Shown here in pieces: positions 1,081 to 40,483 of a DNA stretch of 64,000 bases. The notes under the pieces were generated by a model. It had not been told where the DNA came from, made no database searches, and saw only the letters and a program-made list of their open reading frames with translations. The DNA comes from an uncultured virus (IMG/VR IMGVR_UViG_3300029787_005093). Its lineage: Duplodnaviria; Heunggongvirae; Uroviricota; Caudoviricetes. Numbering within the stretch: the stretch's first letter is position 1; each line of letters starts with the position of its first letter. The DNA lies in the IMG/VR virus record IMGVR_UViG_3300029787_005093; one strand, given 5' to 3'. The position numbers and the translations under genes are program-made.

Positions 1081-1631
1081 ATTAAATCTAATGGTTTATT
1101 TTTTCTATATTTCTTTTTTATATCTAAATCTTGTTTTAAAATTTCTCTATCTAAATTTAATCCTATCTTATCAACTGATTTATTAAAAGATACAAAATCT
1201 TTAGTATATAATTCTTCATAAACTAAATAAGGAATATCTAAATCCTTTGATAATTGTTTTATTGCTTCATGTTGCTCAACTGCCCTATCAAATATAGACT
1301 GATCTACAGGTTCCTCTATATCATAATAGTAAGGTTGATGAAATGATACTTCTAAGTTATGTCGAGTATAGTTAAAACTTTCATATACATTCATTATATT
1401 ATTCCTAGTCAATAAAATAACTTTATCATCTTTTTCTATACTCTCTTTTAACTGCTCTGCTCCTCCATAGTCATATAGTATGTGTTTAATTAATTTATTT
1501 TTATAAACGTTACCTTTACCATAATCGTAAGGTTCAAATATAGCTTGCTTTCTTAACTGTTTACCTATAGCTACAGTTAAAGAAGTAGAACCAGATCTAC
1601 CAGAAGCAATAACTATGATATTTTTCCCCAT
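1077..1631 (-). CDS. Sulfotransferase-like protein
   Basis: N-terminal GRSGSTSL PAPS-binding loop, FEP, ILLTR and YEEL motifs. Confidence 0.6.
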   Translation of the reverse strand: MGKNIIVIASGRSGSTSLTVAIGKQLRKQAIFEPYDYGKGNVYKNKLIKHILYDYGGAEQLKESIEKDDKVILLTRNNIMNVYESFNYTRHNLEVSFHQPYYYDIEEPVDQSIFDRAVEQHEAIKQLSKDLDIPYLVYEELYTKDFVSFNKSVDKIGLNLDREILKQDLDIKKKYRKNKPLDLI

Positions 1632-2794
1632 ATGTCTATGGCTTTAAAATATTCGTCTTTGTATTTTTTATCTAAACTCTGTCTCATAGCTTGAGCACCT
1701 GCTAAAGTACCGTTAGGATGTCCATGAATAGCTCCTCCTACATTAGCCATAAAGTCTTTTCCTACTTTTTTAGTTACATAATCAGTTAAGCCAGGATGGA
1801 AGCCGCAACTAAGTGCAGGCATAACATCATACTTATACAACTCCTTCATAGACCCTAATACTTCATCTTCATCCCATTTATAGTAACCACCAATCATTCC
1901 TGCATGTATAAAGTCGACTCCCATCATCCCAGCTAACTTACTGATTACTTTCCATTCTATATAGTAATCATGATTTCTATTTGTTAATATTTTATCTCCA
2001 CTCTTTTGGAAATGTATAAATATAGGAAGGTCTAATTCTCTTATAGATTTATATACTCCTAGACCACACCAGAAATTAACATGCACACTATTACCACCTA
2101 ACTTGTGTACTAACTTAACTCTATCTAAAATACGATGAGGATCAGAATGAATAGATACAGAGTATATAACATTTTTATCTTTTAGATAATCCATGATTAA
2201 AGGTACTCTTTCTTCTATAGAACAAAAAGAAGGATTAGATAATATTTCATCTTCTTTTATAAAATTAACTCCACCTTCTACTAATTCTTTTACCATTTGT
2301 AATAAAGTCTGAGGATCTATACCTGTTTTAGGTTTGACTATAGAACCTAACAAAGGTTTATTTTTTACTCCAGTAAACTTTCTTATACCTTTTATACCAA
2401 ATTTAGGACCTAAGAAATGTTTATGAACCGAAGGAGGAAACTCTATATCTAATACTTGACATTTAGTAATACACTCTATATCCATTTGACCTCCCATAAT
2501 ATTAACCAACATATGAGCAATACCATCAGTAGCAAAATCTATATTAATTATTGGAAATGCTATTTTTACTATACCTTCTTTCTGTTGGATTAAATTTTCT
2601 TCAGTATTTAAAATTATACATGAATGATTATTAAAGAGTTCATCTGTTTCCCATCTATTCCTTACGTTAGGATTACCAACGCTTTGTCCTATAGCTAACT
2701 GCCATGCTGCTTCTTTTAAGTTAGTAGTTGCACCTAATCTATAAGTAACTATAAAATACTTCTTTCTATCTATATTTAATTTAAAAATATCCAC
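1613..2794 (-). CDS. RuBisCO-like protein (form IV, RLP)
   Basis: GPKFGIKGIR, KPKTG, GVNFIKEDE (carbamylated-Lys motif), GVDFIHAG, GGAIHGHPNG. Confidence 0.9.
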   Translation of the reverse strand: MDIFKLNIDRKKYFIVTYRLGATTNLKEAAWQLAIGQSVGNPNVRNRWETDELFNNHSCIILNTEENLIQQKEGIVKIAFPIINIDFATDGIAHMLVNIMGGQMDIECITKCQVLDIEFPPSVHKHFLGPKFGIKGIRKFTGVKNKPLLGSIVKPKTGIDPQTLLQMVKELVEGGVNFIKEDEILSNPSFCSIEERVPLIMDYLKDKNVIYSVSIHSDPHRILDRVKLVHKLGGNSVHVNFWCGLGVYKSIRELDLPIFIHFQKSGDKILTNRNHDYYIEWKVISKLAGMMGVDFIHAGMIGGYYKWDEDEVLGSMKELYKYDVMPALSCGFHPGLTDYVTKKVGKDFMANVGGAIHGHPNGTLAGAQAMRQSLDKKYKDEYFKAIDIWGKIS

Positions 2795-3666
2795 TATACT
2801 AGTTCTTTTATTTGTTTTATTACTTGTTTATCAGTTAAGTAAGGATCTAAAGTTATATGTCCTTCTTTAAAATAATACTTAGGACCTAACTTAGGTTCTT
2901 TTAGTTTTTTTATTACACCATTAGGACCGTATAATTGGTGTACGAAATCTCCTGTAATAATAGTTCTCGTACCAACTCCAGCAGCTAAATTACATAATCC
3001 TCCTTCTGCTCCTACAAAAGCATCACAGTACTTCATTATAGAACATTCAAACAAAATAGACTTTTGATTTTCATCTCCTATACCAACTGTGTTAGCTTGT
3101 GACTTTCCTTTAACTCCTAGTTCTAATATAGTAAAGTCTTTTGAAAGTTCTCTTAATATAGTTTCAATATCTCTATTAGCGCCCCCATATCCTTTATTAG
3201 GTACATCTATACCTGCTTTATATTGTTTTTTATTAAATAAAAAAGTTCTTTCTTTCCAGTTACCCATTACTCCAATTACTTTTTTATTTTTAGGTAAAGT
3301 CATAAATAATTCTCTGACTTTAAGATCATACTCTTTATTAGTATATAATTTATAAGAAGGATCTAAATTTTTTAAACCAACTCTAGCTTTATATTCTGTT
3401 ACTGGTGGCTCTTCAAATCCTAAAGGACCTAAGTTTATTATCTTATCGTACCTAATTGGTACTTGATCTGGTCTAGTTACTGGACCGAAAGGTCTAGAAA
3501 CATAAACTGATCTTATAAATGGGTTATTTTTAATTAAAGATTTCATTTGAGGAAAACCTACTAGGTAGTCTACAGCTCCATACTCTTTGCTTAACTCTTC
3601 AGCTAAACCAGATGCAAATGCTATATCCCCAAAAAAACCGTGCGTTGTTACTAATACTTTACTCAT
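2794..3666 (-). CDS. GT9-like (heptosyltransferase-type) glycosyltransferase
   Basis: GFFGD near the N-terminus, NPFI, CDAFVGAEGGLCNLAAGVG resembling GT9 DSG.MHLAAA. Confidence 0.65.
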   Translation of the reverse strand: MSKVLVTTHGFFGDIAFASGLAEELSKEYGAVDYLVGFPQMKSLIKNNPFIRSVYVSRPFGPVTRPDQVPIRYDKIINLGPLGFEEPPVTEYKARVGLKNLDPSYKLYTNKEYDLKVRELFMTLPKNKKVIGVMGNWKERTFLFNKKQYKAGIDVPNKGYGGANRDIETILRELSKDFTILELGVKGKSQANTVGIGDENQKSILFECSIMKYCDAFVGAEGGLCNLAAGVGTRTIITGDFVHQLYGPNGVIKKLKEPKLGPKYYFKEGHITLDPYLTDKQVIKQIKELV

Positions 3667-4045
3667 AATTTTTATATGATTTTTCTTCTACTAATTGCGA
3701 GTTAGTAAGGATGTTAATTTCTTTTTTTACTTTACTACGTCTATCATTAGTTACATAAACTGAACGTGCAAGTTGTATAAATTCTTCATCGAATCTTTTT
3801 TCTCTTTCACAATCTCTAATCCAATCTTCTATATCCCACAATTGACTATTATATTTTGCTAATTCTAAATATAAATTTTGCATTTTTGATCCATACTCTT
3901 CAAATATTTTAACACATAAAGGATTAAGAGTATAAAATTCTTTTTGAATATTAGATAATTTATCTTTGTCTTCAATCTTAAGCATCTTTAATTCTAAAAT
4001 AGATATTTTATCTAATAATTCTCCAGGTGATACTTCTACTAACAT
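3659..4045 (-). CDS. DUF6165-like protein, often beside GT9 genes
   Basis: SPGELLDKISILELK, LWDIED, NDRR..KKEIN, EEKSY motifs. Confidence 0.65.
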   Translation of the reverse strand: MLVEVSPGELLDKISILELKMLKIEDKDKLSNIQKEFYTLNPLCVKIFEEYGSKMQNLYLELAKYNSQLWDIEDWIRDCEREKRFDEEFIQLARSVYVTNDRRSKVKKEINILTNSQLVEEKSYKNYE

Positions 4046-4755
4046 ATTTTAAAGTTTTTAATTTTTAACCAAGTAGCTTTTTCCCATCCTTCTTCAGAAA
4101 AGTTAAATGTTTTTACTTCTGCTTCTAGCTCTTTAAAACCAATTTGTGGTTTATCTTTATTATATTCATTAAGAAGTTTATGATTATTAATAAAATCTGG
4201 GTCATCCATAGGAGGACAATTATCAGTATGATCTAAAGCATAAAATAATCCTTGTTCATGTCTAAAGCATTGTAAGTTTTTATTAGCTAATCTTAATCTA
4301 GTTTCTTCTTCTTCTTTACCCCATCCAATATATAAAGGATTAAATCCATTTATAGCTTCCATATGAGCTCTTGAAAGCATAAATACTCCTCCCCAGTGAT
4401 TACCTACATCTTGATAAAAGTGCTTGTACCCATCTGGAATATCTTTTAATCTTTTAGGTTTATTATCTTCATCTAAAAATAATACTCTCCTAACTGGATA
4501 GGTAGGTGAGTTATTTATTAATTCATATTTTACATCTTCACTAGGTACATAATCTACGTCATGAAAAATTATTGTATCTCCTTTACTATATTGAAATCCT
4601 ATATTGTAAAGAGAAGATAATCTAAACTTACTATTATCATCTTGTTCAGCTATAATAATTTCATACTCTTTACCTGCAAACCTTTCATGTAGAACTGGCA
4701 TTAGTAGCTCTATATGATTCTTTCTATCTCTATATGGAATAATAATACTATACAT
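4039..4755 (-). CDS. GT7 (beta-1,4-galactosyltransferase-like) glycosyltransferase
   Basis: IIPYRDR, FHDVD, GGV, NGF, GWGKEE motifs. Confidence 0.8.
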   Translation of the reverse strand: MYSIIIPYRDRKNHIELLMPVLHERFAGKEYEIIIAEQDDNSKFRLSSLYNIGFQYSKGDTIIFHDVDYVPSEDVKYELINNSPTYPVRRVLFLDEDNKPKRLKDIPDGYKHFYQDVGNHWGGVFMLSRAHMEAINGFNPLYIGWGKEEEETRLRLANKNLQCFRHEQGLFYALDHTDNCPPMDDPDFINNHKLLNEYNKDKPQIGFKELEAEVKTFNFSEEGWEKATWLKIKNFKIC

Positions 4756-5587
4756 TTAACTCTGGTATTCTATCGTATTGGTGTACAAAAATATATTCTT
4801 TTCCATCATGCGTATAAACTTTACCGTCTTTAATATATGGTTCAGGTTCATTAAGCTTTTTTAAATTATCAGGTTTAGTTTTATCCATAAACGTTCCACA
4901 GTGCATAGCTAATCCTTCTTCAGATTTAGTTGATTTAACTTTATCAAACCAAACAGTCTTTAACATTAAATTCATACCTACTTGATCTGCTACTTGATGT
5001 CCAATACCTAATAAGTAATTAAATAATGCAAAATCTTTAACTGCTTCTGCATATCCTCCTAAAACTCCTACGTTATATATTGTTTCGTTTTGAACTTCTC
5101 TATAAAAGTAAGGACCAAAGTTTTTTAAGAAAGTATTTTTACCCCAAGGTTCATTTTCGAATGTAAGTCCTTCAGAAACAAAAGTTAATAATTTATCTCC
5201 AAGGTTATTATCTAACCATTTGATAGGGTCTCCCTGTAAATAAACGTCTCTAACATCAGTTATAAAGACATACTTATACTTACCTATATTGTCTGCTAAT
5301 AATTGATAGGTATGAAAGAATCTTACATTATGAACTAACGTATAACTATCAGTTACGCTTACATTTCCTGTATTAGGATTAAATTTTTCTACTTTGTTAC
5401 CAAAATGATCATGTTGTATACTGTAGGAAATTATACCTTGATCTTTTATATACTGTTTTACTTCATCTGTACTTCCATAATCTAATAATATAATATCTCC
5501 TTTGAAATGCTCTTTAGTAGATTCAATCCATTTATCAATCTGATTGATATTTAAGTCACAAATAGCACCTAATATTAAATTATTCAT
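4748..5587 (-). CDS. Putative GT-A glycosyltransferase
   Basis: ITDVRDVYLQGDP DxxD-type motif, NVGVLGG, DQ, VHQYDR. Confidence 0.55.
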   Translation of the reverse strand: MNNLILGAICDLNINQIDKWIESTKEHFKGDIILLDYGSTDEVKQYIKDQGIISYSIQHDHFGNKVEKFNPNTGNVSVTDSYTLVHNVRFFHTYQLLADNIGKYKYVFITDVRDVYLQGDPIKWLDNNLGDKLLTFVSEGLTFENEPWGKNTFLKNFGPYFYREVQNETIYNVGVLGGYAEAVKDFALFNYLLGIGHQVADQVGMNLMLKTVWFDKVKSTKSEEGLAMHCGTFMDKTKPDNLKKLNEPEPYIKDGKVYTHDGKEYIFVHQYDRIPELNV

Positions 5588-6129
5588 CCTATTTTAAATT
5601 CTTTTATTATCTGTTCTTTAAAAGATTCGAATCCAAGTTTAGCATATTTAAGCCATTGGTCTTGACTTCCATCATCACTAACCCATTTATATGAATATAC
5701 GATTTTTTCTGCTAAAATACAACTTTGAACTATAGAATAAAGTTCCATTTCTACTATGTCACATTCATTAATTTTATCAGAATAACTATCTAAATGTTTA
5801 TCTGAAGGATCATACATATGATCAGTAGTAAGACATTTTACTCCTTTAAATTTACCAGGTAAAAATAACTCAGGAGGATTATAAAATCCTTTTGTATCTA
5901 TATCGTTAACTACTGAAGTTACTCTTAAAACTTCTCCTAACTCAAAATCTCTTAAATTTCCACAAGAACCAAAATTAATTACTACATCAGGGTCATACTT
6001 TTCTATAAGTCTTGTAGTTTGTACACCAGCATTAATTTTACCTATCCCTGTTAAATGAATAGGAACTCCATTTATTTCTTTACAATTATGTTCATAATCT
6101 GTAGCTGAAAGTAATAAAATATTAAGCAT
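5584..6129 (-). CDS. MTA/SAH nucleosidase-like (PNP/UDP family)
   Basis: TGIGKINA, INFGSCG, VEMEL, KWVSD motifs. Confidence 0.75.
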   Translation of the reverse strand: MLNILLLSATDYEHNCKEINGVPIHLTGIGKINAGVQTTRLIEKYDPDVVINFGSCGNLRDFELGEVLRVTSVVNDIDTKGFYNPPELFLPGKFKGVKCLTTDHMYDPSDKHLDSYSDKINECDIVEMELYSIVQSCILAEKIVYSYKWVSDDGSQDQWLKYAKLGFESFKEQIIKEFKIG

Positions 6130-6610
6130 AGCTAATTACTGATTTTATTTTATCTTCTGTTATTCCTATATCAACTAATGCTATCTTATCTAAAAGTGAA
6201 TAACCTCCTTCTTCTACAAGACGTTCTGCAGCTTTAATTGTTCCTCCAGTAGCGTATACATCATCTACTATTACTACTGTACCTTTTCCTTTTTTCATTT
6301 CAATCATATCAACTCCATATTCTAATTGATAACTAGTATTTACTAAATCTACTCTAGGCAACTTACCCCACTTTCTAATTAATTTAACTCCACCACCAAA
6401 ATGAATTGATAAAGCAGCAGCAAATAAAAATCCTCTTGACTCTATACCTACCCAGTAATCTGGTACCTCTGGAGTTAAAGTTCCTAAATCTATTATAGCT
6501 TGTTGAAATATATTATCATTAGCTAATAGTGGTTGTATATCTCTATATAAAATACCTTCTTGAGGATGGTTAGGTATATCGTCTATATATTTTTTATAAT
6601 GTGCTCTCAT
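6122..6610 (-). CDS. apt: Adenine phosphoribosyltransferase
   Basis: GILYRDI, GIESRGF, RK.GKLP, YQLEYG, VDDVYATGGT. Confidence 0.9.
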   Translation of the reverse strand: MRAHYKKYIDDIPNHPQEGILYRDIQPLLANDNIFQQAIIDLGTLTPEVPDYWVGIESRGFLFAAALSIHFGGGVKLIRKWGKLPRVDLVNTSYQLEYGVDMIEMKKGKGTVVIVDDVYATGGTIKAAERLVEEGGYSLLDKIALVDIGITEDKIKSVISYA

Positions 6611-7263
6611 GTAATATACTTTTTATTAATATAAACAAAATCTTCTTGTATTGGTCTGTAATATTCCATATCAAAATTTTTAAAAAATTGAGATGACTGT
6701 CCTACTTTTAATCCTCTCTGATATCCTATTTCAGTCATATAGTTATCTACTTCTTGAGCTTTAGGAGCTCCTATGTTATAATCAACGTAAGACATTTCTA
6801 AAATAATCATTACAGCTTTTTCTATTAACTTAGTACCTCCTCTCATTATATCAACTTCAGATCCCTGAGTATCCATTTTAATCATATCAAAACCTCCTTC
6901 ATCACCAAATATATTATTTAAAGTATTAGTAGTACGATTTTCAATTATAACATTATCATCATTAAAATACTTAGTTTTTTCTCTATATATTGAATTGCCT
7001 GTGCTAGTTGCTTGATCTTTTTGTTTATAAAATTTAACTTCTTTTATTTCGTCACTTAATAAAGTCATGGCATAAGGAAAGCCTATCTTTTTTAAATGCT
7101 TTTCACATTGAGTAGTCCCTTCAATCATAAAAACATCTACTTCAGGCCAAACTTCTCTACATTCAGCTGCAAATTCTCCAACTTGTGCTCCTACATCTAA
7201 AATAGTTCTAGGATTAAAAGTATAAAAATCTTTTATATTATTTATATCTATTCCTGTAGCCAT
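6607..7263 (-). CDS. FkbM-family methyltransferase
   Basis: LDVGAQVG, IKMDTQGSE motifs. Confidence 0.85.
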   Translation of the reverse strand: MATGIDINNIKDFYTFNPRTILDVGAQVGEFAAECREVWPEVDVFMIEGTTQCEKHLKKIGFPYAMTLLSDEIKEVKFYKQKDQATSTGNSIYREKTKYFNDDNVIIENRTTNTLNNIFGDEGGFDMIKMDTQGSEVDIMRGGTKLIEKAVMIILEMSYVDYNIGAPKAQEVDNYMTEIGYQRGLKVGQSSQFFKNFDMEYYRPIQEDFVYINKKYIT

Positions 7264-7370
7264 TACATTTTAAAAGATTCTAATATATACATTTGCTGCA
7301 ACCAATATTTTATTTCTTTAGGTATTCTAATAAAAATTACTCTAAACCATATTACTATATCTCTAATCAT
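7263..7370 (-). CDS. Small hypothetical protein (35 aa); not in the ORF track
   Basis: MIRDIVIWFRVIFIRIPKEIKYWLQQMYILESFKM fills the gap, with ATGA and TAATG overlaps on both neighbours. Confidence 0.5.
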   Translation of the reverse strand: MIRDIVIWFRVIFIRIPKEIKYWLQQMYILESFKM

Positions 7371-7612
7371 CTCCAAGGTAGCATTGTCATGCCTATTTTA
7401 TTTAATATAAATTCTATTACTACTACAAATAATAATCCTCCTACAATCTGCCAAGCCCAGAACTTCCATCCAGTTAGACCTTCTTGCCATTTCCGGAACT
7501 TACTTTTCTTTGCCCATTCATAAACACCTAACTTAGCATTTATTTTATCAGCATACCATCCTGGGTCGAATAGATTACCAAATGCTATTAGTATTTTTCT
7601 TACTATTTTCAT
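7367..7612 (-). CDS. Small membrane protein
   Basis: C-terminal hydrophobic segment; overlaps neighbours in operon style. Confidence 0.55.
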   Translation of the reverse strand: MKIVRKILIAFGNLFDPGWYADKINAKLGVYEWAKKSKFRKWQEGLTGWKFWAWQIVGGLLFVVVIEFILNKIGMTMLPWR

Positions 7613-7938
7613 TGTTTGAATGCACTTATTGATTTAATTAATCCATCTGAGGTTACTGTGATAAGATCTACTACTTTTAATGTTGCTAAATTATCTATAT
7701 CAATATCTATAACACAAGTAAATTTATCTTTAGCTCCAAAAATATCTTTAACAGTTACATCTATTACTTCTACTGAGGTAAATATTTCATGAAAGGCTTG
7801 TACTGTATCTCTAAAACCTTCTACGTTAATATCCCAATCTTTTAAAGTAATATCTTTATGAAAAAGATCTTCTAATCCATCTAAATCTTTATTAGAAAAT
7901 AATTTAAAATACTTCTCTATAATGTTATAATGTCTCAT
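7609..7938 (-). CDS. SnoaL/NTF2-like protein
   Basis: YFKLFSNKDLDGLEDLF..D..L.DW pattern and size. Confidence 0.65.
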   Translation of the reverse strand: MRHYNIIEKYFKLFSNKDLDGLEDLFHKDITLKDWDINVEGFRDTVQAFHEIFTSVEVIDVTVKDIFGAKDKFTCVIDIDIDNLATLKVVDLITVTSDGLIKSISAFKQ

Positions 7939-8548
7939 AATATTCGTTTTGTTTTTCTTGTCTTGTTATTTCTTTATGATGATATAATGCAGATGCTTCT
8001 TCAGAAGGAAGATGTGCATAGGTTTTATATCCATCTAATTTTTCATGGACTTTTTTAATCCATTTTATCTCAGGTTTATTTTTATAAATTCGCCATTGGT
8101 AATCAGGCCAGTTTATCCAACCTTTATCATCTACATTCCAGTTCCACTTTTGAATATGTTTTTCTGTTAATCCTTTAACTGTGTTAACTCTAGGTACTCT
8201 TAGAATATCTACTGTAGGGTTACCTTGAAGTATAAGGTGTAAACTTTTTATTAATGCTTCGTTAGGTATTTCGTCAGCATCAATCTGAAATATATAATCT
8301 CCAGAGCACATTTTATTCAACTTATTTTTCCAATTGGCAAAGTGACCTTCGAATTCACCTGGCATCCAAGCTATTTCACAATTGACTGACTTAGCTCTAA
8401 GGTATTGTTCTATACCTTCTTCACCATTTGCTATGTCATATAATATAACAATTTCATCCTCGTGTCTTTTATGCTTTAAAAGAAAAGAAACAAGATTTTG
8501 AATTTCTACAAATTCATTACAAACAGTAATTGCATAACTAATTTTCAT
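7925..8548 (-). CDS. GT2 glycosyltransferase
   Basis: ISYAITVCNE, FQIDADE, WPDYQWRI, VHE. Confidence 0.85.
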   Translation of the reverse strand: MKISYAITVCNEFVEIQNLVSFLLKHKRHEDEIVILYDIANGEEGIEQYLRAKSVNCEIAWMPGEFEGHFANWKNKLNKMCSGDYIFQIDADEIPNEALIKSLHLILQGNPTVDILRVPRVNTVKGLTEKHIQKWNWNVDDKGWINWPDYQWRIYKNKPEIKWIKKVHEKLDGYKTYAHLPSEEASALYHHKEITRQEKQNEYYETL

Positions 8549-23374: not shown

Positions 23375-25030
23375 TTATTGCATCATCATACTTGGATCAA
23401 TTCCAGGTACGGCTGGTGCGTTTTCTTCTTTAATATTAGTTACTAATGCTTCGGTAGTTAACATTGTACCTGCTACACTAGCAGCATTTTCTAAAGCTAA
23501 TCTAGTAACTTTAGTAGGATCTATCAACCCTTCTTTAAACATATCTACATATTGGTTAGTTCTAGTATTAAAACCTAACCATTTATTTTTATTAGTTTCT
23601 ACTTCTTTTCTATATGCGTTAATATCTACTTCCATTATACCAGCATTTTCTAATATCTGTTCGAATGGTTTAGCACAAGATTCTAATAATGTAGTAAAAC
23701 CTATAGCTTCATTTTCGTTTTCAGTATAACTCCATAGTTCTGGATCGTCGTATAGTTTTTTACTAGCTTTTAGTAATGCTATACCTCCTCCAGGTAAAAA
23801 TCCTTCTTCTAAAGCAGCTTTAGTAGCATGTAGAGCATCATCAACTCTATCTTTTCTTTCTTTCATTTCAACTTCTGTCATACCTCCTACATAAACTATA
23901 GCTACTCCTCCAATAAATTTAGCTAATCTATCTTGTAAAGTTTCTTTTTCATAAGGTGAAGTAGTATTATCTACTTGATTCTGTATTTCTTTTACTCTAT
24001 TTTCAATCTTTTCTTGATCTCCATTAGCATCTATTATAGTAGTACTCTCTTTTCCTACTGTAACTTTTTTAGCTGATCCTAACCAGTCAGGTTGAAACTT
24101 ATCTAATCTCATTCCTTTTTCAGAAGAAACTACAGTACCGTTAGTTAAAATTGCAATATCTTCAAGCATTGCTTTTTTTCTATCACCAAATTGAGGTGCT
24201 TTTACTGCTACACATCCTAATATACCTCTCATCTTATTAACTACTAAAGTAGAAAGAGCTTCTCCATCTATATCATCTGCAATAATTAATAATGATTTAT
24301 TTTGATTAGAACAACCTTCTAATATAGGAAGTAATTCTTTTACTTGAGTTAGCTTTTTATCTGTAATTAATATTAACGGATTTTGAAGAACAGCCTGCAT
24401 AGAACTATTATCAGTAACAAAATATGGAGATTTATAACCTCTGTCGAATTGCATACCTTCAACTGTTTCTAAATATGTATCTCCTGTTTTAGACTCTTCA
24501 ATCGTAACGACACCATCACGACCTACTTTATCCATGGCTGTGGAAATTAACTCCCCTACTTCGGGGTCATTGTTAGCTGAAATAGTAGCTATTTGCTTTA
24601 GCTGCTCTTCATCCGTAATTTCTTTAGATACTTCTTCTAATGTATCTATAACTTTAGTTGTTGCTTTATCAATTCCTCTTTTTAAATCTACTAAGTTAAC
24701 TGTAGGTTCTTTAGATGCTTCAAGTCCTTTTTTGTATATAGATGAAGCTAATAAAGTAGAAGTAGTAGTACCATCTCCAGCTGCATCAGCAGTCTTAATG
24801 GATGCTTGTTTAACTAACTGTGCTCCTATATTTTCTTCTATATCTTCTAACTCAATGCTCTTAGCTACGGTTACTCCATCTTTAGTAGATTGAGGAAAGC
24901 CTTGTTTTTGCTCTATAATAACATTTCTACCTGAAGGTCCTAATGTTGCTGTAACTGCTTTCGATAACTTATCAACGCCAGTAACTAATTTTTCTCTAGC
25001 GTCATTTGAAAAACTTATTTTATTACTCAT
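23375..25030 (-). CDS. groL: Chaperonin GroEL
   Basis: TLGPSGRNV, TKDGVTVAK, GDGTTT, EGMQFDRGY, IDPTKVTR. Confidence 0.97.
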   Translation of the reverse strand: MSNKISFSNDAREKLVTGVDKLSKAVTATLGPSGRNVIIEQKQGFPQSTKDGVTVAKSIELEDIEENIGAQLVKQASIKTADAAGDGTTTSTLLASSIYKKGLEASKEPTVNLVDLKRGIDKATTKVIDTLEEVSKEITDEEQLKQIATISANNDPEVGELISTAMDKVGRDGVVTIEESKTGDTYLETVEGMQFDRGYKSPYFVTDNSSMQAVLQNPLILITDKKLTQVKELLPILEGCSNQNKSLLIIADDIDGEALSTLVVNKMRGILGCVAVKAPQFGDRKKAMLEDIAILTNGTVVSSEKGMRLDKFQPDWLGSAKKVTVGKESTTIIDANGDQEKIENRVKEIQNQVDNTTSPYEKETLQDRLAKFIGGVAIVYVGGMTEVEMKERKDRVDDALHATKAALEEGFLPGGGIALLKASKKLYDDPELWSYTENENEAIGFTTLLESCAKPFEQILENAGIMEVDINAYRKEVETNKNKWLGFNTRTNQYVDMFKEGLIDPTKVTRLALENAASVAGTMLTTEALVTNIKEENAPAVPGIDPSMMMQ

Positions 25031-25032
25031 AT

Positions 25033-25338
25033 TTATTTTTTTGATTCTTTAATTACTGCTAAAATTTCTTTATCTTGTGCGATTAAGTATTCTTCTCCTT
25101 CAAAGTCAATACGTAAAGTACCTATTTTAGGTATTAGTACTACATCTCCTACTTTACAAGATCTAACCGTAATCATTTGACCGAATTCAGATAATCGGCC
25201 TGGTCCTATTGATACTACAGTTCCCATTTCAGGTTTTTCTTTACCCATATCAGGCACTACTATAGAACCGTACATTTGCTCTCCATCGTCAATAGGTTTT
25301 ATTATTATCCTATCGTTACAAGGGTTTAATTTTTTCAT
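25033..25338 (-). CDS. groS: Co-chaperonin GroES
   Basis: P..DRIII, KEKP..GTVVSIGPG, KVGDVV, EILAVI. Confidence 0.93.
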   Translation of the reverse strand: MKKLNPCNDRIIIKPIDDGEQMYGSIVVPDMGKEKPEMGTVVSIGPGRLSEFGQMITVRSCKVGDVVLIPKIGTLRIDFEGEEYLIAQDKEILAVIKESKK

Positions 25339-25359
25339 ATTTAGATAACTTTTATTTAA

Positions 25360-25392
25360 TTAATATAATAAAAATAAATGAGGGATCCAACT
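25360..25392 (-). promoter_or_regulatory. Repeated promoter upstream of groES
   Basis: AGTTG-N20-TATATTAA. Confidence 0.7.
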
Positions 25393-25407
25393 CCAGAATG
25401 GATTATT

Positions 25408-25818
25408 TTAGCTAATTTTCAAAGTTTTTGGCTCTGATCCTTTAGCAAAAGGGATTATAACTTGCAACAAGCCGTTTTTAAATTCAGCAGTTGCTTTTGA
25501 AAGGTTAAACTTACTATCAATCTTCCAACCTAAGTTAAAAGAACGTTTAGCAATACCTTTATGGATAAACTCTCCTCTATCCTCTTCTTCTGGTTTGTCG
25601 TAATTTACGCGAATAATATTACCCTCTATTTGTATTTCAATATCTTCTTTTGAGATCCCGGTACAGGCAATGTCGAGGCCTAGACCGCTTTCTTTTTCGT
25701 AAATATCTACTGGGTGGGGTAATTTGGATTCTGCCAACGGTCGGTATGTGTTGGCTTCTTGGAAAAAATTCCTAACTAAAATGTCGAACGGATTACGTTC
25801 ATAAAATAATGTACTCAT
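25408..25818 (-). CDS. Small heat-shock protein Hsp20
   Basis: PVDIYE, HKGIAKRSF, A.FKNGLL alpha-crystallin motifs. Confidence 0.9.
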   Translation of the reverse strand: MSTLFYERNPFDILVRNFFQEANTYRPLAESKLPHPVDIYEKESGLGLDIACTGISKEDIEIQIEGNIIRVNYDKPEEEDRGEFIHKGIAKRSFNLGWKIDSKFNLSKATAEFKNGLLQVIIPFAKGSEPKTLKIS

Positions 25819-30682: not shown

Positions 30683-31576
30683 TTATTGTCTTAAAGTTTT
30701 CTTAATAATAAATTCTGGGTTATCAAAAAATTCTGGTATTAAAGAGGTATGAGAAGCTCTAATTGGATTAATATCTATCCCTCCTCTTCTAGTATATAAA
30801 CAGGCTACCATTAATTGATCAGGTTCATAAGCATCGACTAAATGTTTATATACCATTTCACATATTTCTTCATGAAAGTGACTTACTGTTCTATGACTAA
30901 CTATATATTTAGCTAAAGATTCAGCAGTAGGTAATTTTTTACCTTTTAATCTAATAAATACATCACCCCAATCAGGTTGATTAGTTACTCTACAATTAGA
31001 TCTAAGTAAATTAGAAGTAAATTTAACTTCTCCATCTTCTTCATTAACTTCCAATTGAGAAGAATCAGATTTAAAAGCAGTAAAGTCTATTGCATCTAGA
31101 TTAGCTTCTTCTGCTATATCTACATACCCCTGAAAGCTCATAGGTTCTGTTTCTATATCACTAGCATAAAAAGTTATAGTAGTATTAGTTTCTAATAACT
31201 CATCTAAATCTCTTTTAACTCTAGATTCTATACCTTTAATACAATCAGCTGCAGTGTCTCCAATCTTAGTCATATTAAATGAATTAAGATATAGTTTTAT
31301 TGACTTAGATTCTACGTGAAACTCACTCGAAGCAGGACATACTATTTTTAACATCCCAGCTACAGGCTGACCCTTAGTAGTAATAGCAGATACTTCATAT
31401 GCATTCCATGTATCTACTCCTACAAATTCTTTTCCAGTAAGATTATAAGTTTCTCTATTTAATACTCTAGGTACTTTAACTAATAGGTCTCTATTATATT
31501 GATCGCTATACCCGTCACCTCCTACTTTACCTAAATGCTTACCAGCAATTTCTTTTACTTTATTTTGATTATCCAT
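30683..31576 (-). CDS. queF: NADPH-dependent preQ0 reductase (two-domain type)
   Basis: DTWNAYE, VESKSIKLYLNSF, LRSNCRVTNQPDWG, FHEEICE, YTRRGGIDINP; probable start MDNQ at 31576. Confidence 0.93.
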   Translation of the reverse strand: MDNQNKVKEIAGKHLGKVGGDGYSDQYNRDLLVKVPRVLNRETYNLTGKEFVGVDTWNAYEVSAITTKGQPVAGMLKIVCPASSEFHVESKSIKLYLNSFNMTKIGDTAADCIKGIESRVKRDLDELLETNTTITFYASDIETEPMSFQGYVDIAEEANLDAIDFTAFKSDSSQLEVNEEDGEVKFTSNLLRSNCRVTNQPDWGDVFIRLKGKKLPTAESLAKYIVSHRTVSHFHEEICEMVYKHLVDAYEPDQLMVACLYTRRGGIDINPIRASHTSLIPEFFDNPEFIIKKTLRQ

Positions 31577-31934
31577 TAAATATTTGTTTTTTACCACCCT
31601 CATAAACATAAGCGTGACCATTTTCGATTAATAACTGATTTAACGATTTATCTTCACCATCAATAAATATTTCAGCTAATACTCTACCGTATTTACCTTT
31701 TCCATATGATTGAATAGTAAAATTACCATCGTTTAATTCTAGATAAGTTGCAGTAAAAGCAGTAGCTGCTAAACCTTTAATTTTTTCTGCCTTATCTCTA
31801 GTTCTTTTCTCCCAGGTATCAACACCTTTGAACCTTAACCTAGCTTTAACCCAGGTATCGAATCCTAGATCGATCATAACATCTGCTGTATCACCGTCTA
31901 CGACTCTTACTAATTTTGCTTTATACTTATACAT
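31569..31934 (-). CDS. Thermonuclease (SNase-like)
   Basis: RVVDGDT, RLRFKGVDTWE, GKYGRVLA, LNQLLIENGHA. Confidence 0.88.
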   Translation of the reverse strand: MYKYKAKLVRVVDGDTADVMIDLGFDTWVKARLRFKGVDTWEKRTRDKAEKIKGLAATAFTATYLELNDGNFTIQSYGKGKYGRVLAEIFIDGEDKSLNQLLIENGHAYVYEGGKKQIFNG

Positions 31935-32448
31935 CTATAAATTTTAATATCTGTTCTACCCTTTGCATAGGTGAACCTGTTATCGTCAAATAAGGTTGAC
32001 GTACACCTGTTAATACTGCTTCGAATTCATTATCAATTTTAGTTCTCCATTCTTCGTCTATACTTCTTACTCCATCATCTACTGATTCGAATTCTATAGG
32101 AAAGTAAATATAATGAGTATATTCATTTTTAATTCTATTCCAAATATCTTCTATATAATTATACGTTCTAGGTTTTATTTTTTTCATAAACTTAGAGTAA
32201 ACTAATACATCCATATAGCATCTATCTAATACTTGGTTATACGGTTGAAGTAAAGCTTCTAAATGAAAACTACTAATAGCTAATTGAGTAGCATCTGTTC
32301 CTTTTTCGTTTATAGGAAAACCATAATTACCTACAGTTCTAGTAGATTCATTTACAAATTCGTACTTAGGTAACTTATTTTTAAGTAACTCATATACAGT
32401 AGTCTTACCAGTACTGCTTGCTCCTACTAATGCTACTCTTTTTATCAT
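31927..32448 (-). CDS. P-loop nucleotide kinase (NadR/AAA_28-like)
   Basis: GASSTGKTT, LDRCYMD, DDGVR. Confidence 0.75.
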   Translation of the reverse strand: MIKRVALVGASSTGKTTVYELLKNKLPKYEFVNESTRTVGNYGFPINEKGTDATQLAISSFHLEALLQPYNQVLDRCYMDVLVYSKFMKKIKPRTYNYIEDIWNRIKNEYTHYIYFPIEFESVDDGVRSIDEEWRTKIDNEFEAVLTGVRQPYLTITGSPMQRVEQILKFIDV

Positions 32449-32981
32449 AAAACCTTTTTTAATAAACTAATCCACATAGACAATGCTCTATCTCTTAATA
32501 TACGAAATAAACCGTTAAGATCCAAACCATAAGTATTAAATTCTTCTGATAATATTATCTCTCCTTCGTCTACTCCTCCGCTAACTTTATGAAGAACTGC
32601 TCCTGCAGTTTTATATTTACCTTCAAAAGCTCTTATTTGAGGATCTTTACCTTTAAGCTCTGGGTATTTAGTAATTAATCCAGGATGTCCATTATAAATG
32701 TTAGATCTTTCACAAACATATTCCGGAACTATTCTTAACCATCCATGTAAAGTAACTATTGCCTTAGAATTAGCTTCTAATAATTCTATATAATCCTCTT
32801 CAGACGGTTTATTAGCCCAGGTAAAGTAACCTTGCTTTTCTATTCTAGGATCTATCGTTCTTAAATCTTCTGGTCTTTCATTAGTAATAATGATATCAGG
32901 CCATCTTCCTAAAGCTTCTGAAAGATCTGCTATTTCAGAACCTGTCTGACTAAAAAATGTTATCCAACGCGTGTTTGCCAT
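32445..32981 (-). CDS. PurN-like formyltransferase; candidate preQ1 formyltransferase (DpdN-like)
   Basis: HGWLRI, NGHPGL, HKV...VDEG formyl-THF motifs; inside the deazaguanine cluster. Confidence 0.8.
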   Translation of the reverse strand: MANTRWITFFSQTGSEIADLSEALGRWPDIIITNERPEDLRTIDPRIEKQGYFTWANKPSEEDYIELLEANSKAIVTLHGWLRIVPEYVCERSNIYNGHPGLITKYPELKGKDPQIRAFEGKYKTAGAVLHKVSGGVDEGEIILSEEFNTYGLDLNGLFRILRDRALSMWISLLKKVL

Positions 32982-33771
32982 TAGTAATCCATCTAAATTT
33001 TTGTATATTATTTTTTATTATATCTAATTGATCTATATTAATATCTGAGTTTATTAATTCAAATAATTTTTGAGATTCTTTAGACCAAAGTCCTTCTGAT
33101 CTATAACTAATTTTTTTTATTCCATGCACAACAGGATTAGAGGTATCTAAAGAATATAACCAATTATAATCTGAATGTTTATAAAAAGCAAATTCTTGAG
33201 GTAAACTACAGCCTAACAAATGATGCGGCTTTTTTTTATTTATAATACCGTCTTTAAGTAAATCTCCTAGTAACTTAACACGTCCTAGCATCCAACTAAC
33301 ATATTTATTAGCATGAGGAACTGATTTAGTATAATACGAATAATCGAATGATATAGCAATCATATCTACTTTTGCTACTTTATCCATATATGAATAGCAA
33401 TCTACTATTTCATTATAAGTTTTACCTTGAACAACTCCTATTTTTTTACCTGGTACATTGAAATATTTTCTATTCCAATCCGACATTTTATTTATAGTGC
33501 CTTCTGCATCCTCTAAAACGTCGGGAACTATATACCAGGAGGGTCTAAGATCATCAACCCAATATTTAAACTTTTCTGCATCGAAAGCTTCTTCTAATTC
33601 AAATATAGAATTATCTAATATAATTTCTCTACCTTTAGAAGCTGCAGTTTTAAATTGCTTTAAGTATTCCTCATCTTCTTCAAATAAATGAACTAAAGCA
33701 TAATCATAATCAGTAAATCTTTGAACTTCTTCAAATATACTCTTAGGACTTTCATGTGCTATTTTAATCAT
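32950..33771 (-). CDS. dpdA: Divergent TGT-fold protein; candidate DpdA (7-deazaguanine insertion)
   Basis: ILDNS, PDV, GVVQG, HLLG and SLDTS occur in TGT motif order; lies between folE and the formyltransferase. Confidence 0.65.
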   Translation of the reverse strand: MIKIAHESPKSIFEEVQRFTDYDYALVHLFEEDEEYLKQFKTAASKGREIILDNSIFELEEAFDAEKFKYWVDDLRPSWYIVPDVLEDAEGTINKMSDWNRKYFNVPGKKIGVVQGKTYNEIVDCYSYMDKVAKVDMIAISFDYSYYTKSVPHANKYVSWMLGRVKLLGDLLKDGIINKKKPHHLLGCSLPQEFAFYKHSDYNWLYSLDTSNPVVHGIKKISYRSEGLWSKESQKLFELINSDINIDQLDIIKNNIQKFRWITNGKHALDNIF

Positions 33772-33774
33772 ACC

Positions 33775-34488
33775 TTAATGTTTACAAACTCCTGCGAGTT
33801 CAATATTTTTATAAAATTCAGCTTTTGCTGATGCTTCGTTTAAGAATGCTCCAGTAAGTTTAGCTGTTTGCATAGAAGCACCTCCATGCTTTACTCCTCT
33901 ACATGATACACATGCATGAGTTGCATTAACTTGTACTGCTACTCCTAAATTACCTTCACATATTTTATCTACTGCATTATGAATAGCTACGGTTAACTGC
34001 TCTTGTATAGCTCCTCTTCTACCAAACTGCTCTACTATTCTATTTAGTTTAGATAATCCTACTACCTTCCCATCTTCTGAAGCAATATAAGCAATACTTA
34101 CTGTACCTCTAATGGCTTGATGGTGATGCGAACACATAGAAGTTACTGGTATGTTACTCTCTTGTACTATGCCGTCATAACCATCTGAAGGAAATGCTGT
34201 AATACGGTCTAATGGGTTATACCTTCCTGCCCATAAATCATTAACATAAGCTTTAGCTACTCTAAAAGGAGTATCAGAAGAGTTAGGATCGTCTTTATAA
34301 TCACATCCTAAAGCAGTTAAGAAATCTGCATATGCTTTAGCAGCATTTTCTATAATAACTTCTTTCTCTTCTTTAGTTAACTTTGCTTCAGGTCCTTCTA
34401 CTTCTTGTTTTTTTGCTAATTGACTTGAAATACCGTTTGCAAAACCGGCTCGTACTAATTCAGTACCTTCTATAAACTTCTTTGCCAT
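33775..34488 (-). CDS. folE: GTP cyclohydrolase I
   Basis: TPFRVAK, SMCSHH, GLSKLNR, QEQLT, HACVSCRGV. Confidence 0.95.
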   Translation of the reverse strand: MAKKFIEGTELVRAGFANGISSQLAKKQEVEGPEAKLTKEEKEVIIENAAKAYADFLTALGCDYKDDPNSSDTPFRVAKAYVNDLWAGRYNPLDRITAFPSDGYDGIVQESNIPVTSMCSHHHQAIRGTVSIAYIASEDGKVVGLSKLNRIVEQFGRRGAIQEQLTVAIHNAVDKICEGNLGVAVQVNATHACVSCRGVKHGGASMQTAKLTGAFLNEASAKAEFYKNIELAGVCKH

Positions 34489-34493
34489 ATAAT

Positions 34494-34525
34494 ATAATAT
34501 AAGAATTTTAAATTAATTTTCCAAA
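34494..34525 (-). promoter_or_regulatory. Repeated promoter upstream of folE
   Basis: TTTG-N20-TATATTAT. Confidence 0.6.
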
Positions 34526-34935
34526 TAATTTTGTATCGTTTTTGAATCTTTTTTCTCCCAAGGGTAAACTATCCATCCATAATTTTTAGATATTTCTTTT
34601 GCAAAAACATCTGGTTTAAAAGATGAAATTTCTTTATAATGTAATGCTCCAGTTATACCATTATATACTTCTTTTCTTAAATTTTCAAAAGTCTTACCTG
34701 AATCTGCTATATCATCTATAATTAATAGATCTGGGTAATGATTACTTGTATGTTCTAGATAAGTTACATTAAATCTATGTGAATAAAGTATTGCTAAAAT
34801 AGTACCTCCTCTTGGTATACCAGTTACAAAACCTACTTTATCTTTTACTTGTTCATGAATATTATCTAAAAGTTCATAAACATCATCCCATGTTAAATAT
34901 ATTTTTTTTATTCCCATGAATGGTTCATTGTCCAA
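34513..34935 (-). CDS. Type I phosphoribosyltransferase (Gpt/xanthine PRT-like)
   Basis: LTWDD, GIPRGG, IIDDIADSGKT, WIVYPWE. Confidence 0.85.
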   Translation of the reverse strand: MDNEPFMGIKKIYLTWDDVYELLDNIHEQVKDKVGFVTGIPRGGTILAILYSHRFNVTYLEHTSNHYPDLLIIDDIADSGKTFENLRKEVYNGITGALHYKEISSFKPDVFAKEISKNYGWIVYPWEKKDSKTIQNYLEN

Positions 34936-34998
34936 AAGGTATCATCTATTTCTATTGTACCTATAATAACTGTATTGTCCATCGTTTAAATTTATTAA

Positions 34999-35778
34999 TT
35001 AGACTTCTCTTTGATCTTCGAAAGCTATAATATGAGGCCTCCAAGTCATTCTATAACCATTATCTCTAACCCAATCAAATAATACTGGGTAAGATTTATA
35101 TAATGCTTCTCTACTATCACCTGCTGGCATAAACCAGACTTTTTCCTTAGGTGCTTTCAATATACCTAAACATTGCATAATTTCATCTAAAGCTGTTTCA
35201 TCTTTACCATCCCATACAGGTTTAATATGATAATCTGAGTGATAATCTATGCTTTGTTTTATAGCAGAATAATTTAATCTAAATTTATTATGCTTTCTAA
35301 TCATATTTTCATCTGTTATACCACCTTGAGGTGTTTCAACACCAAGTACGGGGACGCTATTACTAAACTTGGGACTAATAGAAAGCAAGTTAATAGGGTA
35401 ATCAGTAGGAAGAAAATGGCTACCTTCAGTCTCAATAGTAATAAAAATATTTCTTTCATTTGCAAAATGTGTTAGTTCGTTTACTAGTTTTTTATGCATG
35501 GTTGGAGATCCTCCAGTAAGCATCATTTCTGATATCTGAGGATTATCATCATACATTTTTATTATATCGTTAAAGCTATATTTACCTTTTTCAGGATGTA
35601 TACTTGTATACCAAGAATCACACCAACCTCCTTCACCGAAATAACATCTATGCGTACAACCTGTAGTTCTAATTACTACGGTAGGATAACCTGCTCTTGA
35701 TCCTTCTGATTGAACTGCAGTATAAACTTCGACTATAGGTAAATTTTTATCGTAATCTTGAATTCTACCTAGGCTCAT
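34999..35778 (-). CDS. queE: 7-carboxy-7-deazaguanine synthase (radical SAM)
   Basis: VQSEG..AG.P.V.IR..GC, CTHRC...WCDS, LTGG.P, IETEG, ISPK; probable start MSLG at 35778. Confidence 0.9.
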   Translation of the reverse strand: MSLGRIQDYDKNLPIVEVYTAVQSEGSRAGYPTVVIRTTGCTHRCYFGEGGWCDSWYTSIHPEKGKYSFNDIIKMYDDNPQISEMMLTGGSPTMHKKLVNELTHFANERNIFITIETEGSHFLPTDYPINLLSISPKFSNSVPVLGVETPQGGITDENMIRKHNKFRLNYSAIKQSIDYHSDYHIKPVWDGKDETALDEIMQCLGILKAPKEKVWFMPAGDSREALYKSYPVLFDWVRDNGYRMTWRPHIIAFEDQREV

Positions 35779-36232
35779 ATATTGCTGTGTTTTTACTATG
35801 TTCTCTAAATTCAACTTTTGCTATTTTTACCCTCCCTTCGGTTTCTTCTTGTATAAAAGGGTTAAGTTTATCGAATAAAAATTGTGCAAATCTTTCTCCT
35901 CCTGTTGCTGGTATAACTCTAACTTGAGCTACTCCTGCTTCAGACATTTTTAAGAAAGAATCTTTAAAAGGATCATCTTCTGCTACAATAAATGTATGAT
36001 CAAACATATGATCCATCCATGCTTTAGGAGACATACCATCAATAGTTCCTTTAGCTCTCTTCATTCCTCCGAAATCCCAGACCCAATTACGATCGTCTAG
36101 TTTTCCTTCAAACCAAATTTTAAATGAAATACCATACCCATGTAGATATTTGCAGTGGGTAGTTTCTGCACGCCACTGTCGGAAGACAGTAGAAAAGCCA
36201 TCAAAGACTTTAGTAGATTGAAATTTACTCAT
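35765..36232 (-). CDS. queD: 6-carboxy-tetrahydropterin synthase
   Basis: HCKYLHGY, WVWDFG, FDH, E...NTA.Y. Confidence 0.85.
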   Translation of the reverse strand: MSKFQSTKVFDGFSTVFRQWRAETTHCKYLHGYGISFKIWFEGKLDDRNWVWDFGGMKRAKGTIDGMSPKAWMDHMFDHTFIVAEDDPFKDSFLKMSEAGVAQVRVIPATGGERFAQFLFDKLNPFIQEETEGRVKIAKVEFREHSKNTAIYEPR

Positions 36233-36263
36233 TTTGTGTTTTTAAGTGGTGCTACGACACTAT
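36233..36263 (-). ncRNA. Candidate preQ1-I-like riboswitch in the queD 5' leader
   Basis: AGUG-UCGUAGCAC-CACU stem-loop plus the A-rich tail UAAAAACACAAA abutting the AUG. Confidence 0.45.
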
Positions 36264-36277
36264 AGTCAATAATAATA

Positions 36278-36310
36278 TAAATATAAGAACTTTTTGATTA
36301 ATAAACAACT
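36278..36310 (-). promoter_or_regulatory. Repeated promoter upstream of queD
   Basis: AGTTG-N20-TATATTTA. Confidence 0.7.
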
Positions 36311-36314
36311 ATTA

Positions 36315-36425
36315 CTAAAAGTTTTTATAAGTAAAAGGATCTCTTTTTTTAAGTTCCTTAATTTTCTTTTGATAAGCTTTTTCTCTTTTATAATCAGCGA
36401 TTTTACGCTTTATCCATTTTATCAT
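36315..36425 (-). CDS. Small basic protein (36 aa); not in the ORF track
   Basis: MIKWIKRKIADYKREKAYQKKIKELKKRDPFTYKNF; ATGA overlap with the carbamoyltransferase stop. Confidence 0.55.
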   Translation of the reverse strand: MIKWIKRKIADYKREKAYQKKIKELKKRDPFTYKNF

Positions 36426-38083: not shown

Positions 38084-38286
38084 TTTTTTATACCAAATTT
38101 AGAAAATTTATACCAAGTTCGTTCGTGTAGGTAGTAAAGCACCATTTTGGAAAAAACCTCTATTCCCCCTATAGCCAAACCTACTTCCCAAGAACCCGTT
38201 ATTAGTCCTGAAATTATTATTGTATCTAATGTTCCTACTATACGCCATGTAACTGATTTTAATATATGTCTTTTATGTGCAACCAT
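38080..38286 (-). CDS. DUF2061-like small membrane protein
   Basis: KSVTWRIVGT, YYLHERTW. Confidence 0.75.
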   Translation of the reverse strand: MVAHKRHILKSVTWRIVGTLDTIIISGLITGSWEVGLAIGGIEVFSKMVLYYLHERTWYKFSKFGIKK

Positions 38287-40477: not shown

Positions 40478-40483
40478 ATTGCT

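Follow-up and report, generated by a model that had tools for sequence, protein, structure and literature searches.

A phage-encoded RuBisCO-like protein and the conserved nucleotidyltransferase, cupin and GDPD-like genes that accompany its relatives

The window analysed here – the first 64 kb (64,000 nucleotides) of a 121,152-bp, 73%-complete record (G000) of an uncultured tailed phage, IMG/VR IMGVR_UViG_3300029787_005093 – carries a gene for a RuBisCO-like protein (RLP) at positions 1613–2794. Its reading frame lies on the minus strand, opens with GTG and runs stop-free through 393 amino acids; the plus strand over the same interval is closed. The gene is one of a run of overlapping genes, as the first-pass annotation of this DNA had claimed: the overlap is 1 nt with the upstream gene (2794–3666), 19 nt with the downstream gene (1077–1631), and 4 nt at each junction onward to genes for a HAD-like phosphatase, a flavodoxin and a GDPD-like protein. 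Comparison with four relatives gave ratios of non-synonymous to synonymous substitution (dN/dS) of 0.107, 0.136, 0.116 and 0.070: purifying selection acts on the RLP gene. We argue that its product probably feeds a conserved gene module predicted to make sugar donors.

The major head, portal, terminase and sheath genes of the phage are T4-like, and the likeness of its capsid protein to that of Flavobacterium phage vB_FspM_immuto (68% identity) suggests a Bacteroidota host. A metagenome contig (L298) that matches the record at 99.7% identity over 8,794 bases extends beyond the record's contig end, and there carries the GDPD-like gene in full, along with a DUF7796-like gene, a NAD-dependent epimerase and a family 2 glycosyltransferase (GT2). 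Three RNA libraries gave contigs covering parts of the RLP gene, one of them from a relative about 95% identical, although expression is not thereby shown; counts of promoters and terminators were no higher than in shuffled sequence.

That the gene encodes a full-length protein of RuBisCO fold, as had been proposed at the outset, is borne out by the intact frame, by two Pfam matches (RuBisCO_large, PF00016, E 1.4e-35; RuBisCO_large_N, PF02788) and by an AlphaFold model of high confidence (pLDDT 94.5, from a 58-sequence alignment). The model aligns with form III Rubisco 2CWX over 379 residues (VIA Z 44.6, root-mean-square deviation 2.4) and about equally well with MtnW (VIA Z 44.5); Foldseek template-modelling scores are 0.89 for form III Rubisco and 0.85 for MtnW. 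The marks of the superfamily – an N-terminal domain joined to a beta/alpha barrel, and the K201-x-D203-E204 motif – are all present.

A critical issue is what remains of the active site. We use spinach residue numbers and roles, and scored conservation over 289 unique family sequences. Alignments uphold the equivalents first read by eye: K175/K177 correspond to K154/K156, K201/D203/E204 to K180/D182/E183, H327 to H297, and loop-6 K334 to a tyrosine, Y304. K154, K156, K180, D182, H238, Q263 and Y304 are present in 289 of 289; E183 in 288, H297 in 287, S329 (S379) in 288, G353/G354 in 287 and K264 in 287 (with one Arg). G331 is kept as well, and Q37, R45, E49, D105 and H238 are further conserved polar residues (288–289 of 289). 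The Mg/carbamate and P1-phosphate residues are thus conserved, and the protein probably still enolises a ketose phosphate. Three residues are replaced throughout: E60 by G36 (288/289), N123 by G102 (289/289) and K334 by Y304 (289/289); their joint replacement argues against carboxylation. The IHFQK stretch does belong to the H294 region, as first read, the equivalents of H294/R295 being most likely Q263/K264 and not H261/F262. The former register appears in three of four profile alignments and is ungapped against form III; the latter comes from an MtnW/DeepYkr profile and from MAFFT. We favour the former because Q263 is kept in all 289 sequences and K264 in 287, while H261 is Phe in seven; neither beta-6 register places both His and Arg at 294/295. 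On this reading the second anion site (K264, H297, S329) is probably retained.

The protein falls below every NCBIfam cut-off against which it was scored: 199 against 497 for form III (TIGR03326), 162 against 700 for OiaX, and 147 against 514 and 165 against 409 for the two mtnW models. Relatives are widespread in IMG/VR. Among 4,456 candidates 2,698 were homologues at E <= 0.001, and the best 120 were 72–96% identical; no match was found among 50,697 GenBank phage records. From 105 viral stretches encoding relatives we kept 80, hereafter the 80 related viral loci, nine of which are giant-virus (GVMAG) records; eight further loci from genomes include metagenome-assembled genomes (MAGs) of Beckwithbacteria, Saccharibacteria and Planctomycetales. 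A FastTree phylogeny of 54 rows – form I, one MtnW, five OiaX-type and one DeepYkr-type reference, 28 proteins from the Candidate Phyla Radiation (CPR) and 17 family members – united the 17 members, including the Beckwithbacteria protein L084, in a single clade with support 100, subject to a long-branch warning. This clade stands apart from the MtnW, OiaX-type and DeepYkr-type references, and the phylogeny that the first-pass annotation had called for thus does not group the protein with MtnW, in a tree that holds one MtnW reference. None of the 28 other CPR proteins fell inside the phage clade; a RuBisCO-family match occurs in 28 of 401 genomes of the phylum of the Beckwithbacteria MAG. Two CPR proteins (L293 and L294, from genomes G405 and G353) form a further, very divergent clade with the motif FIKEDENLF on a branch of 1.95, outside the clade described here and outside all references used.

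In host range and placement the family agrees with the clade that Jaffe et al. named 'Form IV-like' (bioRxiv 10.1101/386292), a RuBisCO-related group from phages and Beckwithbacteria whose function is left unclear in the accessible text. Both are divergent phage-encoded RLPs, in a clade shared with a Beckwithbacteria MAG and other CPR. The clade has been in print since 2018, a fact that the first-pass annotation did not mention. The accessible text of that preprint does not name the partner genes of the Form IV-like proteins: what we add is a module of nucleotidyltransferase, cupin and GDPD-like genes, and its exchange with HAD phosphatases.

The module is evident in the neighbourhoods of the RLP relatives. 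With profiles built from the same loci that they scored, the nucleotidyltransferase was found in 79 of the 80 related viral loci, a cupin of 106 amino acids in 72 and a GDPD-like protein of 150 amino acids in 70. In a second sample, reduced from 230 loci (167 of which have 3 kb on both sides) to 94 by dereplication at 90%, the same three genes lie within 3 kb of the RLP gene in 88, 82 and 82 cases; within that distance DUF7796-like genes occur in 40, NAD-dependent epimerase/dehydratases in 23, WavE-like genes in 16 and any HAD in 10. Among the 28 largest clusters of neighbours no kinase or phosphatase was recognisable by eye, nor was mtnA, mtnB or mtnD among the neighbour clusters. The module recurs in four CPR or unclassified MAG loci of the eight genome loci and, without the cupin, in the Planctomycetales locus; the cupin is lacking also from the phage studied here, from L001, L002 and L071, and from L030, L032, L033 and L035. 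In all nine GVMAG loci (L045, L054, L057, L058, L062–L064, L072 and L073) the nucleotidyltransferase and cupin are fused, and the RLP and GDPD-like genes stand separate. The nearest solved structure to the nucleotidyltransferase is an NDP-sugar (nucleoside diphosphate sugar) pyrophosphorylase of Vibrio cholerae, 4EVW (E 5e-31), and no NCBIfam model exceeded its cut-off for it; the cupin label derives from weak Pfam and PDB matches. At a further locus, which lacks a cupin, a GDPD-like gene and a nucleotidyltransferase flank a short, divergent RLP of 351 amino acids (L165, 1350–2405). At the other extreme, all RLP reading frames of the 230 loci were at most 470 amino acids long, in searches that favour relatives of similar length.

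The module is also found without an RLP, and there the distribution of HAD phosphatases is telling. We took the best 80 viral loci of 592 GDPD-like and of 539 cupin relatives. Around GDPD-like genes, 56 loci have a HAD only, ten an RLP only, one both and 13 neither; around cupins, 54 have an RLP only, 15 a HAD only, four both and seven neither. After dereplication at 70% identity, counting both HAD types, the pattern persists among 48 GDPD-anchored loci (HAD only 33, RLP only 7, both 1, neither 7; p 3.2e-4) and among 34 cupin-anchored loci (HAD only 7, RLP only 22, both 3, neither 2; p 6.5e-4). In module loci RLPs and HAD phosphatases nearly exclude each other. Cyanophages S-CAM9 and B3 have RLP-free modules with a HAD, as do proteobacterial plasmids, WavE being present on four of five plasmids examined. 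Several loci with neither have a different, C-terminal HAD fused to the nucleotidyltransferase, or a fusion to RpiB (L196, E 1.7e-33), or transketolase together with a PfkB-like kinase and a HAD (L116). RLP-free loci thus appear to fill the RLP slot with ketose-phosphate enzymes. DUF7796- or WavE-like genes accompany both versions of the module (in 105 of 152 loci and in 39 of 56, counted before dereplication). In a FastTree phylogeny of 133 of 258 nucleotidyltransferase domains, dereplicated at 80%, the eleven fusions to a C-terminal HAD nest within the RLP/cupin clade.

Two arrangements deserve separate record. In a third type of module a HAD and a PfkB-like kinase lie beside the GDPD-like gene (L196, 9019–11828; L116, 3435–7813; L122, 4177–8438), with transketolase halves in L116 and L122 and the nucleotidyltransferase–RpiB fusion in L196. 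In Synechococcus phage S-SKS1 (L297, 6001–9539) a nucleotidyltransferase of the family is fused to a full RibB domain (TIGR00506, above cut-off) and is followed by an APH-like gene (a weak match), a small HAD annotated 'phosphoheptose isomerase' and a transaldolase; GDPD-like gene, cupin and RLP are all missing there.

Against this background the phage itself is an atypical case in which the module is broken up. All genes of the run lie on the minus strand. The GDPD-like mini-phosphodiesterase (1–227), a core member of the module, is cut by the contig end, is whole at 149 amino acids in L298, and stays within the overlapping run of the RLP gene; its early label is supported by a profile match to PDB (E 5e-6) and by Foldseek, whose top rows are GDPDs, weak (E >= 1e-3) but consistent. 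Next come a long-chain, lineage-specific flavodoxin (224–730), its label confirmed by TIGR01752 above cut-off, and a small HAD-like phosphatase of 117 amino acids (727–1080), matched by phrog_1238 and by a HAD profile built here only, and present also in L298 and L299. The phrog_1238 family carries the label 'phosphoheptose isomerase', but the members found here resemble small HAD phosphatases. The gene at 1077–1631 is a putative sulfotransferase-like gene, so labelled from a motif read by eye and with no database match, and that at 2794–3666 a putative glycosyltransferase (GT), GT9-like by eye only: neither of these early labels was confirmed by Pfam, NCBIfam, PHROGs or PDB. The sulfotransferase-like gene is missing from L299 and the contig of a close relative skips 1082–1610, which marks it as a recent indel among close relatives. 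Upstream, also on the minus strand, lies a variable glycan island (3659–8548) with DUF6165, GT7, a putative GT, a methylthioadenosine/S-adenosylhomocysteine (MTA/SAH)-nucleosidase-like gene, adenine phosphoribosyltransferase (APRT), an FkbM methyltransferase, SnoaL and GT2; the nucleosidase-like and APRT genes stand side by side at 5584–6610, adjoining the FkbM gene, and may serve in SAH clean-up.

Scored by BLAST in the 80 related viral loci, the GT9-like gene recurs in three and the small HAD in one, and the sulfotransferase-like, flavodoxin, nucleosidase-like and APRT genes in none. The proposal that the RLP is linked to the named transferases therefore fails. What stands is the broader link to glycans: RLP homologues do lie in glycan-synthesis regions of phages, giant-virus bins and CPR, with partners other than those first named. 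Likewise a biosynthetic role in supplying a donor remains the best reading, with nucleotidyltransferase, cupin and GDPD-like protein, and not the transferases, as the conserved partners. Sister phages L001, L303 and L304 have the order GT–nucleotidyltransferase–RLP; in the window, L298 and L299 the middle gene is missing. The record has no match for the cupin, within its 73% completeness, and has two nucleotidyltransferases of the family, which lie at a distance of 70–80 kb and fall on the HAD side of the nucleotidyltransferase tree: one a HAD–nucleotidyltransferase fusion (G000 71775–73151), the other followed by a small HAD (82715–83760). Both sit within an island of about 30 kb of glycan-like and unrecognised genes outside the window. 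Since the RLP gene is still under selection, its product probably has a partner that is encoded far away or in the unsequenced part of the genome.

The interpretation that we consider likely is that the RLP is the entry step of the nucleotidyltransferase–cupin–GDPD-like module, supplying a ketose phosphate for an NDP-sugar donor. The logic is one of substitution: other versions of the module would deliver a ketose monophosphate by a phosphatase, or by a kinase and a phosphatase, and the RLP version mostly has neither, so the RLP should deliver one without. The exact chemistry, the likeliest of those weighed here, we put forward more tentatively, and it may well prove wrong: a pentulose 5-phosphate would be isomerised to a ketose 1-phosphate, and this converted to a nucleotide-activated keto-sugar for a glycan. 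With K180 carbamylated, the RLP would enolise its ketose phosphate, and two successive proton shifts would then take the carbonyl from C2 to C4, turning xylulose or ribulose 5-phosphate into a pentulose 1-phosphate with need of neither ATP nor a phosphatase. The nucleotidyltransferase would form an NDP-ketose. GDPDs act through a 1,2-cyclic phosphate, and through such an intermediate the GDPD-like protein could shift the phosphate to the anomeric O2; DUF7796- or WavE-like proteins would finally transfer the sugar. In the phage studied here the RLP would depend on the nucleotidyltransferase at G000 71775–73151 or 82715–83446, or on an unsequenced one. The isomerisation would be the reverse of that catalysed by the DeepYkr RLP of Rhodospirillum rubrum, which according to the accessible text of PMC4958253 converts 5-methylthioribulose 1-phosphate (MTRu-1P) to 1-methylthioxylulose 5-phosphate (MTXu-5P). 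For the later steps a parallel exists in Pasteurella multocida type B, where BcbE is genetically required for the fructose side chain of the capsule (PMC13552107, in its accessible part).

Several observations weigh against this proposal. A retained second anion site is easier to reconcile with a bisphosphate or an acid as substrate than with a monophosphate, and a DeepYkr-type RLP (L260) has P/I/G at those positions; nor does the phage RLP group with DeepYkr, for which the tree has one reference. The best solved relative of the nucleotidyltransferase is 4EVW, and BcbE was compared by description only. Nucleotidyltransferases fused to an N-terminal HAD make up a separate clade that excludes most of those linked to an RLP, and a HAD is found together with an RLP at 5 of the 80 viral and 11 of the 80 metagenome RLP loci, in the metagenome set a HAD of that N-terminal type; the exclusion may therefore reflect two modules with different products and not a one-for-one swap. 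Its anchors, moreover, were built from RLP-linked genes and cover the best 80 loci, a non-random set whose members are phylogenetically non-independent. The phage studied here is itself an exception: a small HAD lies beside its RLP, neither nucleotidyltransferase is adjacent, and the cupin is absent from the 121-kb record. Finally, no glycan structure is linked to any RLP locus: when three fragments of RLP-free modules were searched as DNA against E. coli genomes no match resulted, and thus no known polysaccharide structure is tied to the module. The family, as noted, had already been published, and the phage shows the module in an untypical, fragmented form.

Some of these points favour a different substrate within the same module. 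If a ketose bisphosphate such as fructose 1,6-bisphosphate or ribulose 1,5-bisphosphate (RuBP) were enolised, the C1 phosphate might be eliminated or the carbon skeleton rearranged, giving a deoxy-diulose or a branched unit of hamamelose or apiose type that the cupin and nucleotidyltransferase would finish. We regard this as a close rival, though on the unlikely side. The residues of the two anion sites seem to be preserved (K264/H297/S329 and G331/G353/G354), cupins go with the RLP (72 of 80 loci) more than with the HAD (8 of 57 GDPD-anchored HAD loci), elimination would likewise make a phosphatase unnecessary, and the nucleotidyltransferase of S-SKS1 is fused to RibB, an enzyme whose own chemistry is one of elimination and rearrangement. 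However, the S-SKS1 locus lacks the GDPD-like gene, cupin and RLP, the cupin is missing from the phage studied here and from the seven loci listed above, the record has no PRK, and a branched aldose would still need phosphorylation at C1, for which no kinase is conserved. Simpler chemistry – a C3-epimerase, or an OiaX-like (de)carboxylase or transcarboxylase of a keto-acid phosphate – is unlikely. It would suit the conserved Mg/carbamate site and K154, the R295 site that OiaX-type RLPs also keep, and the epimerase/dehydratases near 23 of 94 loci; yet the OiaX score is far below its cut-off, the clades are separate, K334 – present in all five OiaX-type references – is Tyr in the phage protein, and an epimerase alone leaves the exchange with phosphatases unexplained. 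It is more improbable again that the activated unit serves something besides a surface glycan, such as modification of DNA or protein. The phage has many modification genes elsewhere (FolE, QueD, radical SAM, QueC and QueF, and a carbamoyltransferase), but the module lies among GT2/GT4 and membrane genes in the CPR and Planctomycetales MAGs (by eye), and on four plasmids its RLP-free form adjoins WavE, ABC transporter, flippase or O-antigen ligase genes.

Two familiar activities fare worse, and judged from sequence the protein is not MtnW, OiaX or a carboxylase. An MtnW-like enolase of methionine salvage acting on 2,3-diketo-5-methylthiopentyl 1-phosphate (DK-MTP-1-P) is very improbable despite the nucleosidase-like gene and APRT 2.8–3.8 kb upstream, the HAD downstream, the cupins beside relatives and a structural match to MtnW level with that to form III. 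The nucleosidase and APRT are found in none of the 80 related viral loci; family matches to MtnA, MtnB and ARD (acireductone dioxygenase) are absent from the 73%-complete record; both mtnW scores are low and the protein does not group with MtnW; and the lysine at position 123 of Bacillus velezensis MtnW, which is catalytic, is Gly here. A divergent RuBP carboxylase is the least credible of all. Its best case is that the closest sequence and fold matches are form III Rubiscos and that the protein retains the carbamate site together with K175/K177, H327, S379 and, probably, a basic residue at 295; set against this are the change of E60, N123 and K334 to G, G and Y in 288–289 of 289 sequences, a TIGR03326 score of 199 against 497 and, again, the lack of PRK in the record. 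For both methionine salvage and carboxylation, residues, tree and gene context all fail, and we reject them.

Comparison with characterised systems sharpens what is distinctive. The DeepYkr RLP interconverts a ketose 1-phosphate and a 5-phosphate by moving the carbonyl, the kind of reaction proposed here, and has a cupin partner, as do most relatives of the phage RLP; unlike the phage RLP it belongs to catabolic sulfur salvage and to another clade, and has no nucleotidyltransferase or GDPD-like partner (PMC4958253, accessible text). The DeepYkr-type reference L260, so assigned from its mtnA/transketolase-like context and sitting on a long branch, is without the second anion site that the phage RLP keeps. 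MtnW (2OEM, 2ZVI) has in common with the phage RLP the fold, the KxDE carbamate site and Gly at position 60, whereas the phage protein has no Lys at 123, keeps K177 and H327, and differs in clade and context. OiaX-type RLPs, found beside four-carbon acid sugar kinases, resemble it in their tie to sugar-phosphate metabolism and in a basic residue at 295, and differ in their catabolic context with a kinase and in keeping K334. For the fructose side-chain genes BcbE, BcbF and BcbG the accessible part of PMC13552107 reports no RLP or GDPD and does not state an enzyme activity. In the open-access literature we found no paper that describes the module or a substrate for the phage RLP clade; nor is the module described in the accessible text of PMC8858990, PMC10919079, PMC12409901 or PMC11641403.

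Two other regions of the window are of note. Positions 30683–41278 hold a 7-deazaguanine/queuosine-type set (QueF, GTP cyclohydrolase I, radical SAM, 6-pyruvoyl-tetrahydropterin synthase (PTPS) and QueC) together with a carbamoyltransferase, an adenosine 5'-phosphosulfate (APS) kinase and a small CTP-transferase-like gene, possibly for DNA or tRNA modification. GroEL-like, GroES-like and small heat-shock-like genes were recognised by eye at 23375–25818.

The conserved module and the exchange with phosphatases narrow an open question about this RLP to a short list of substrates and a four-protein reconstitution. One practical consequence is that viral contigs of this family should not be credited with a carbon-fixation gene where they are annotated 'RuBisCO'. 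In its most far-reaching form, which we hold to be possible but doubtful, the RLP would be the first anabolic RuBisCO-fold enzyme: an ATP-free isomerase of ketose 5-phosphate to 1-phosphate, or a rearranger of the carbon skeleton, heading a hitherto undescribed pathway to nucleotide-activated ketofuranoses, one that includes a cyclic-phosphate step on a GDPD fold and is common to tailed phages, giant viruses and CPR bacteria; its phosphatase-using variant would explain keto-sugar donors without assigned genes in bacterial polysaccharides. Such a route could bear on the making of ketofuranose donors, for example the xylulose of E. coli O95/O97, in whose O-antigen clusters genes for the precursor were not found according to the accessible text of a review (PMC7685785). 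If true, a role in supplying sugar donors would extend the chemistry of the RuBisCO fold, whose characterised RLPs act, in the accessible parts of the literature consulted, in salvage pathways.

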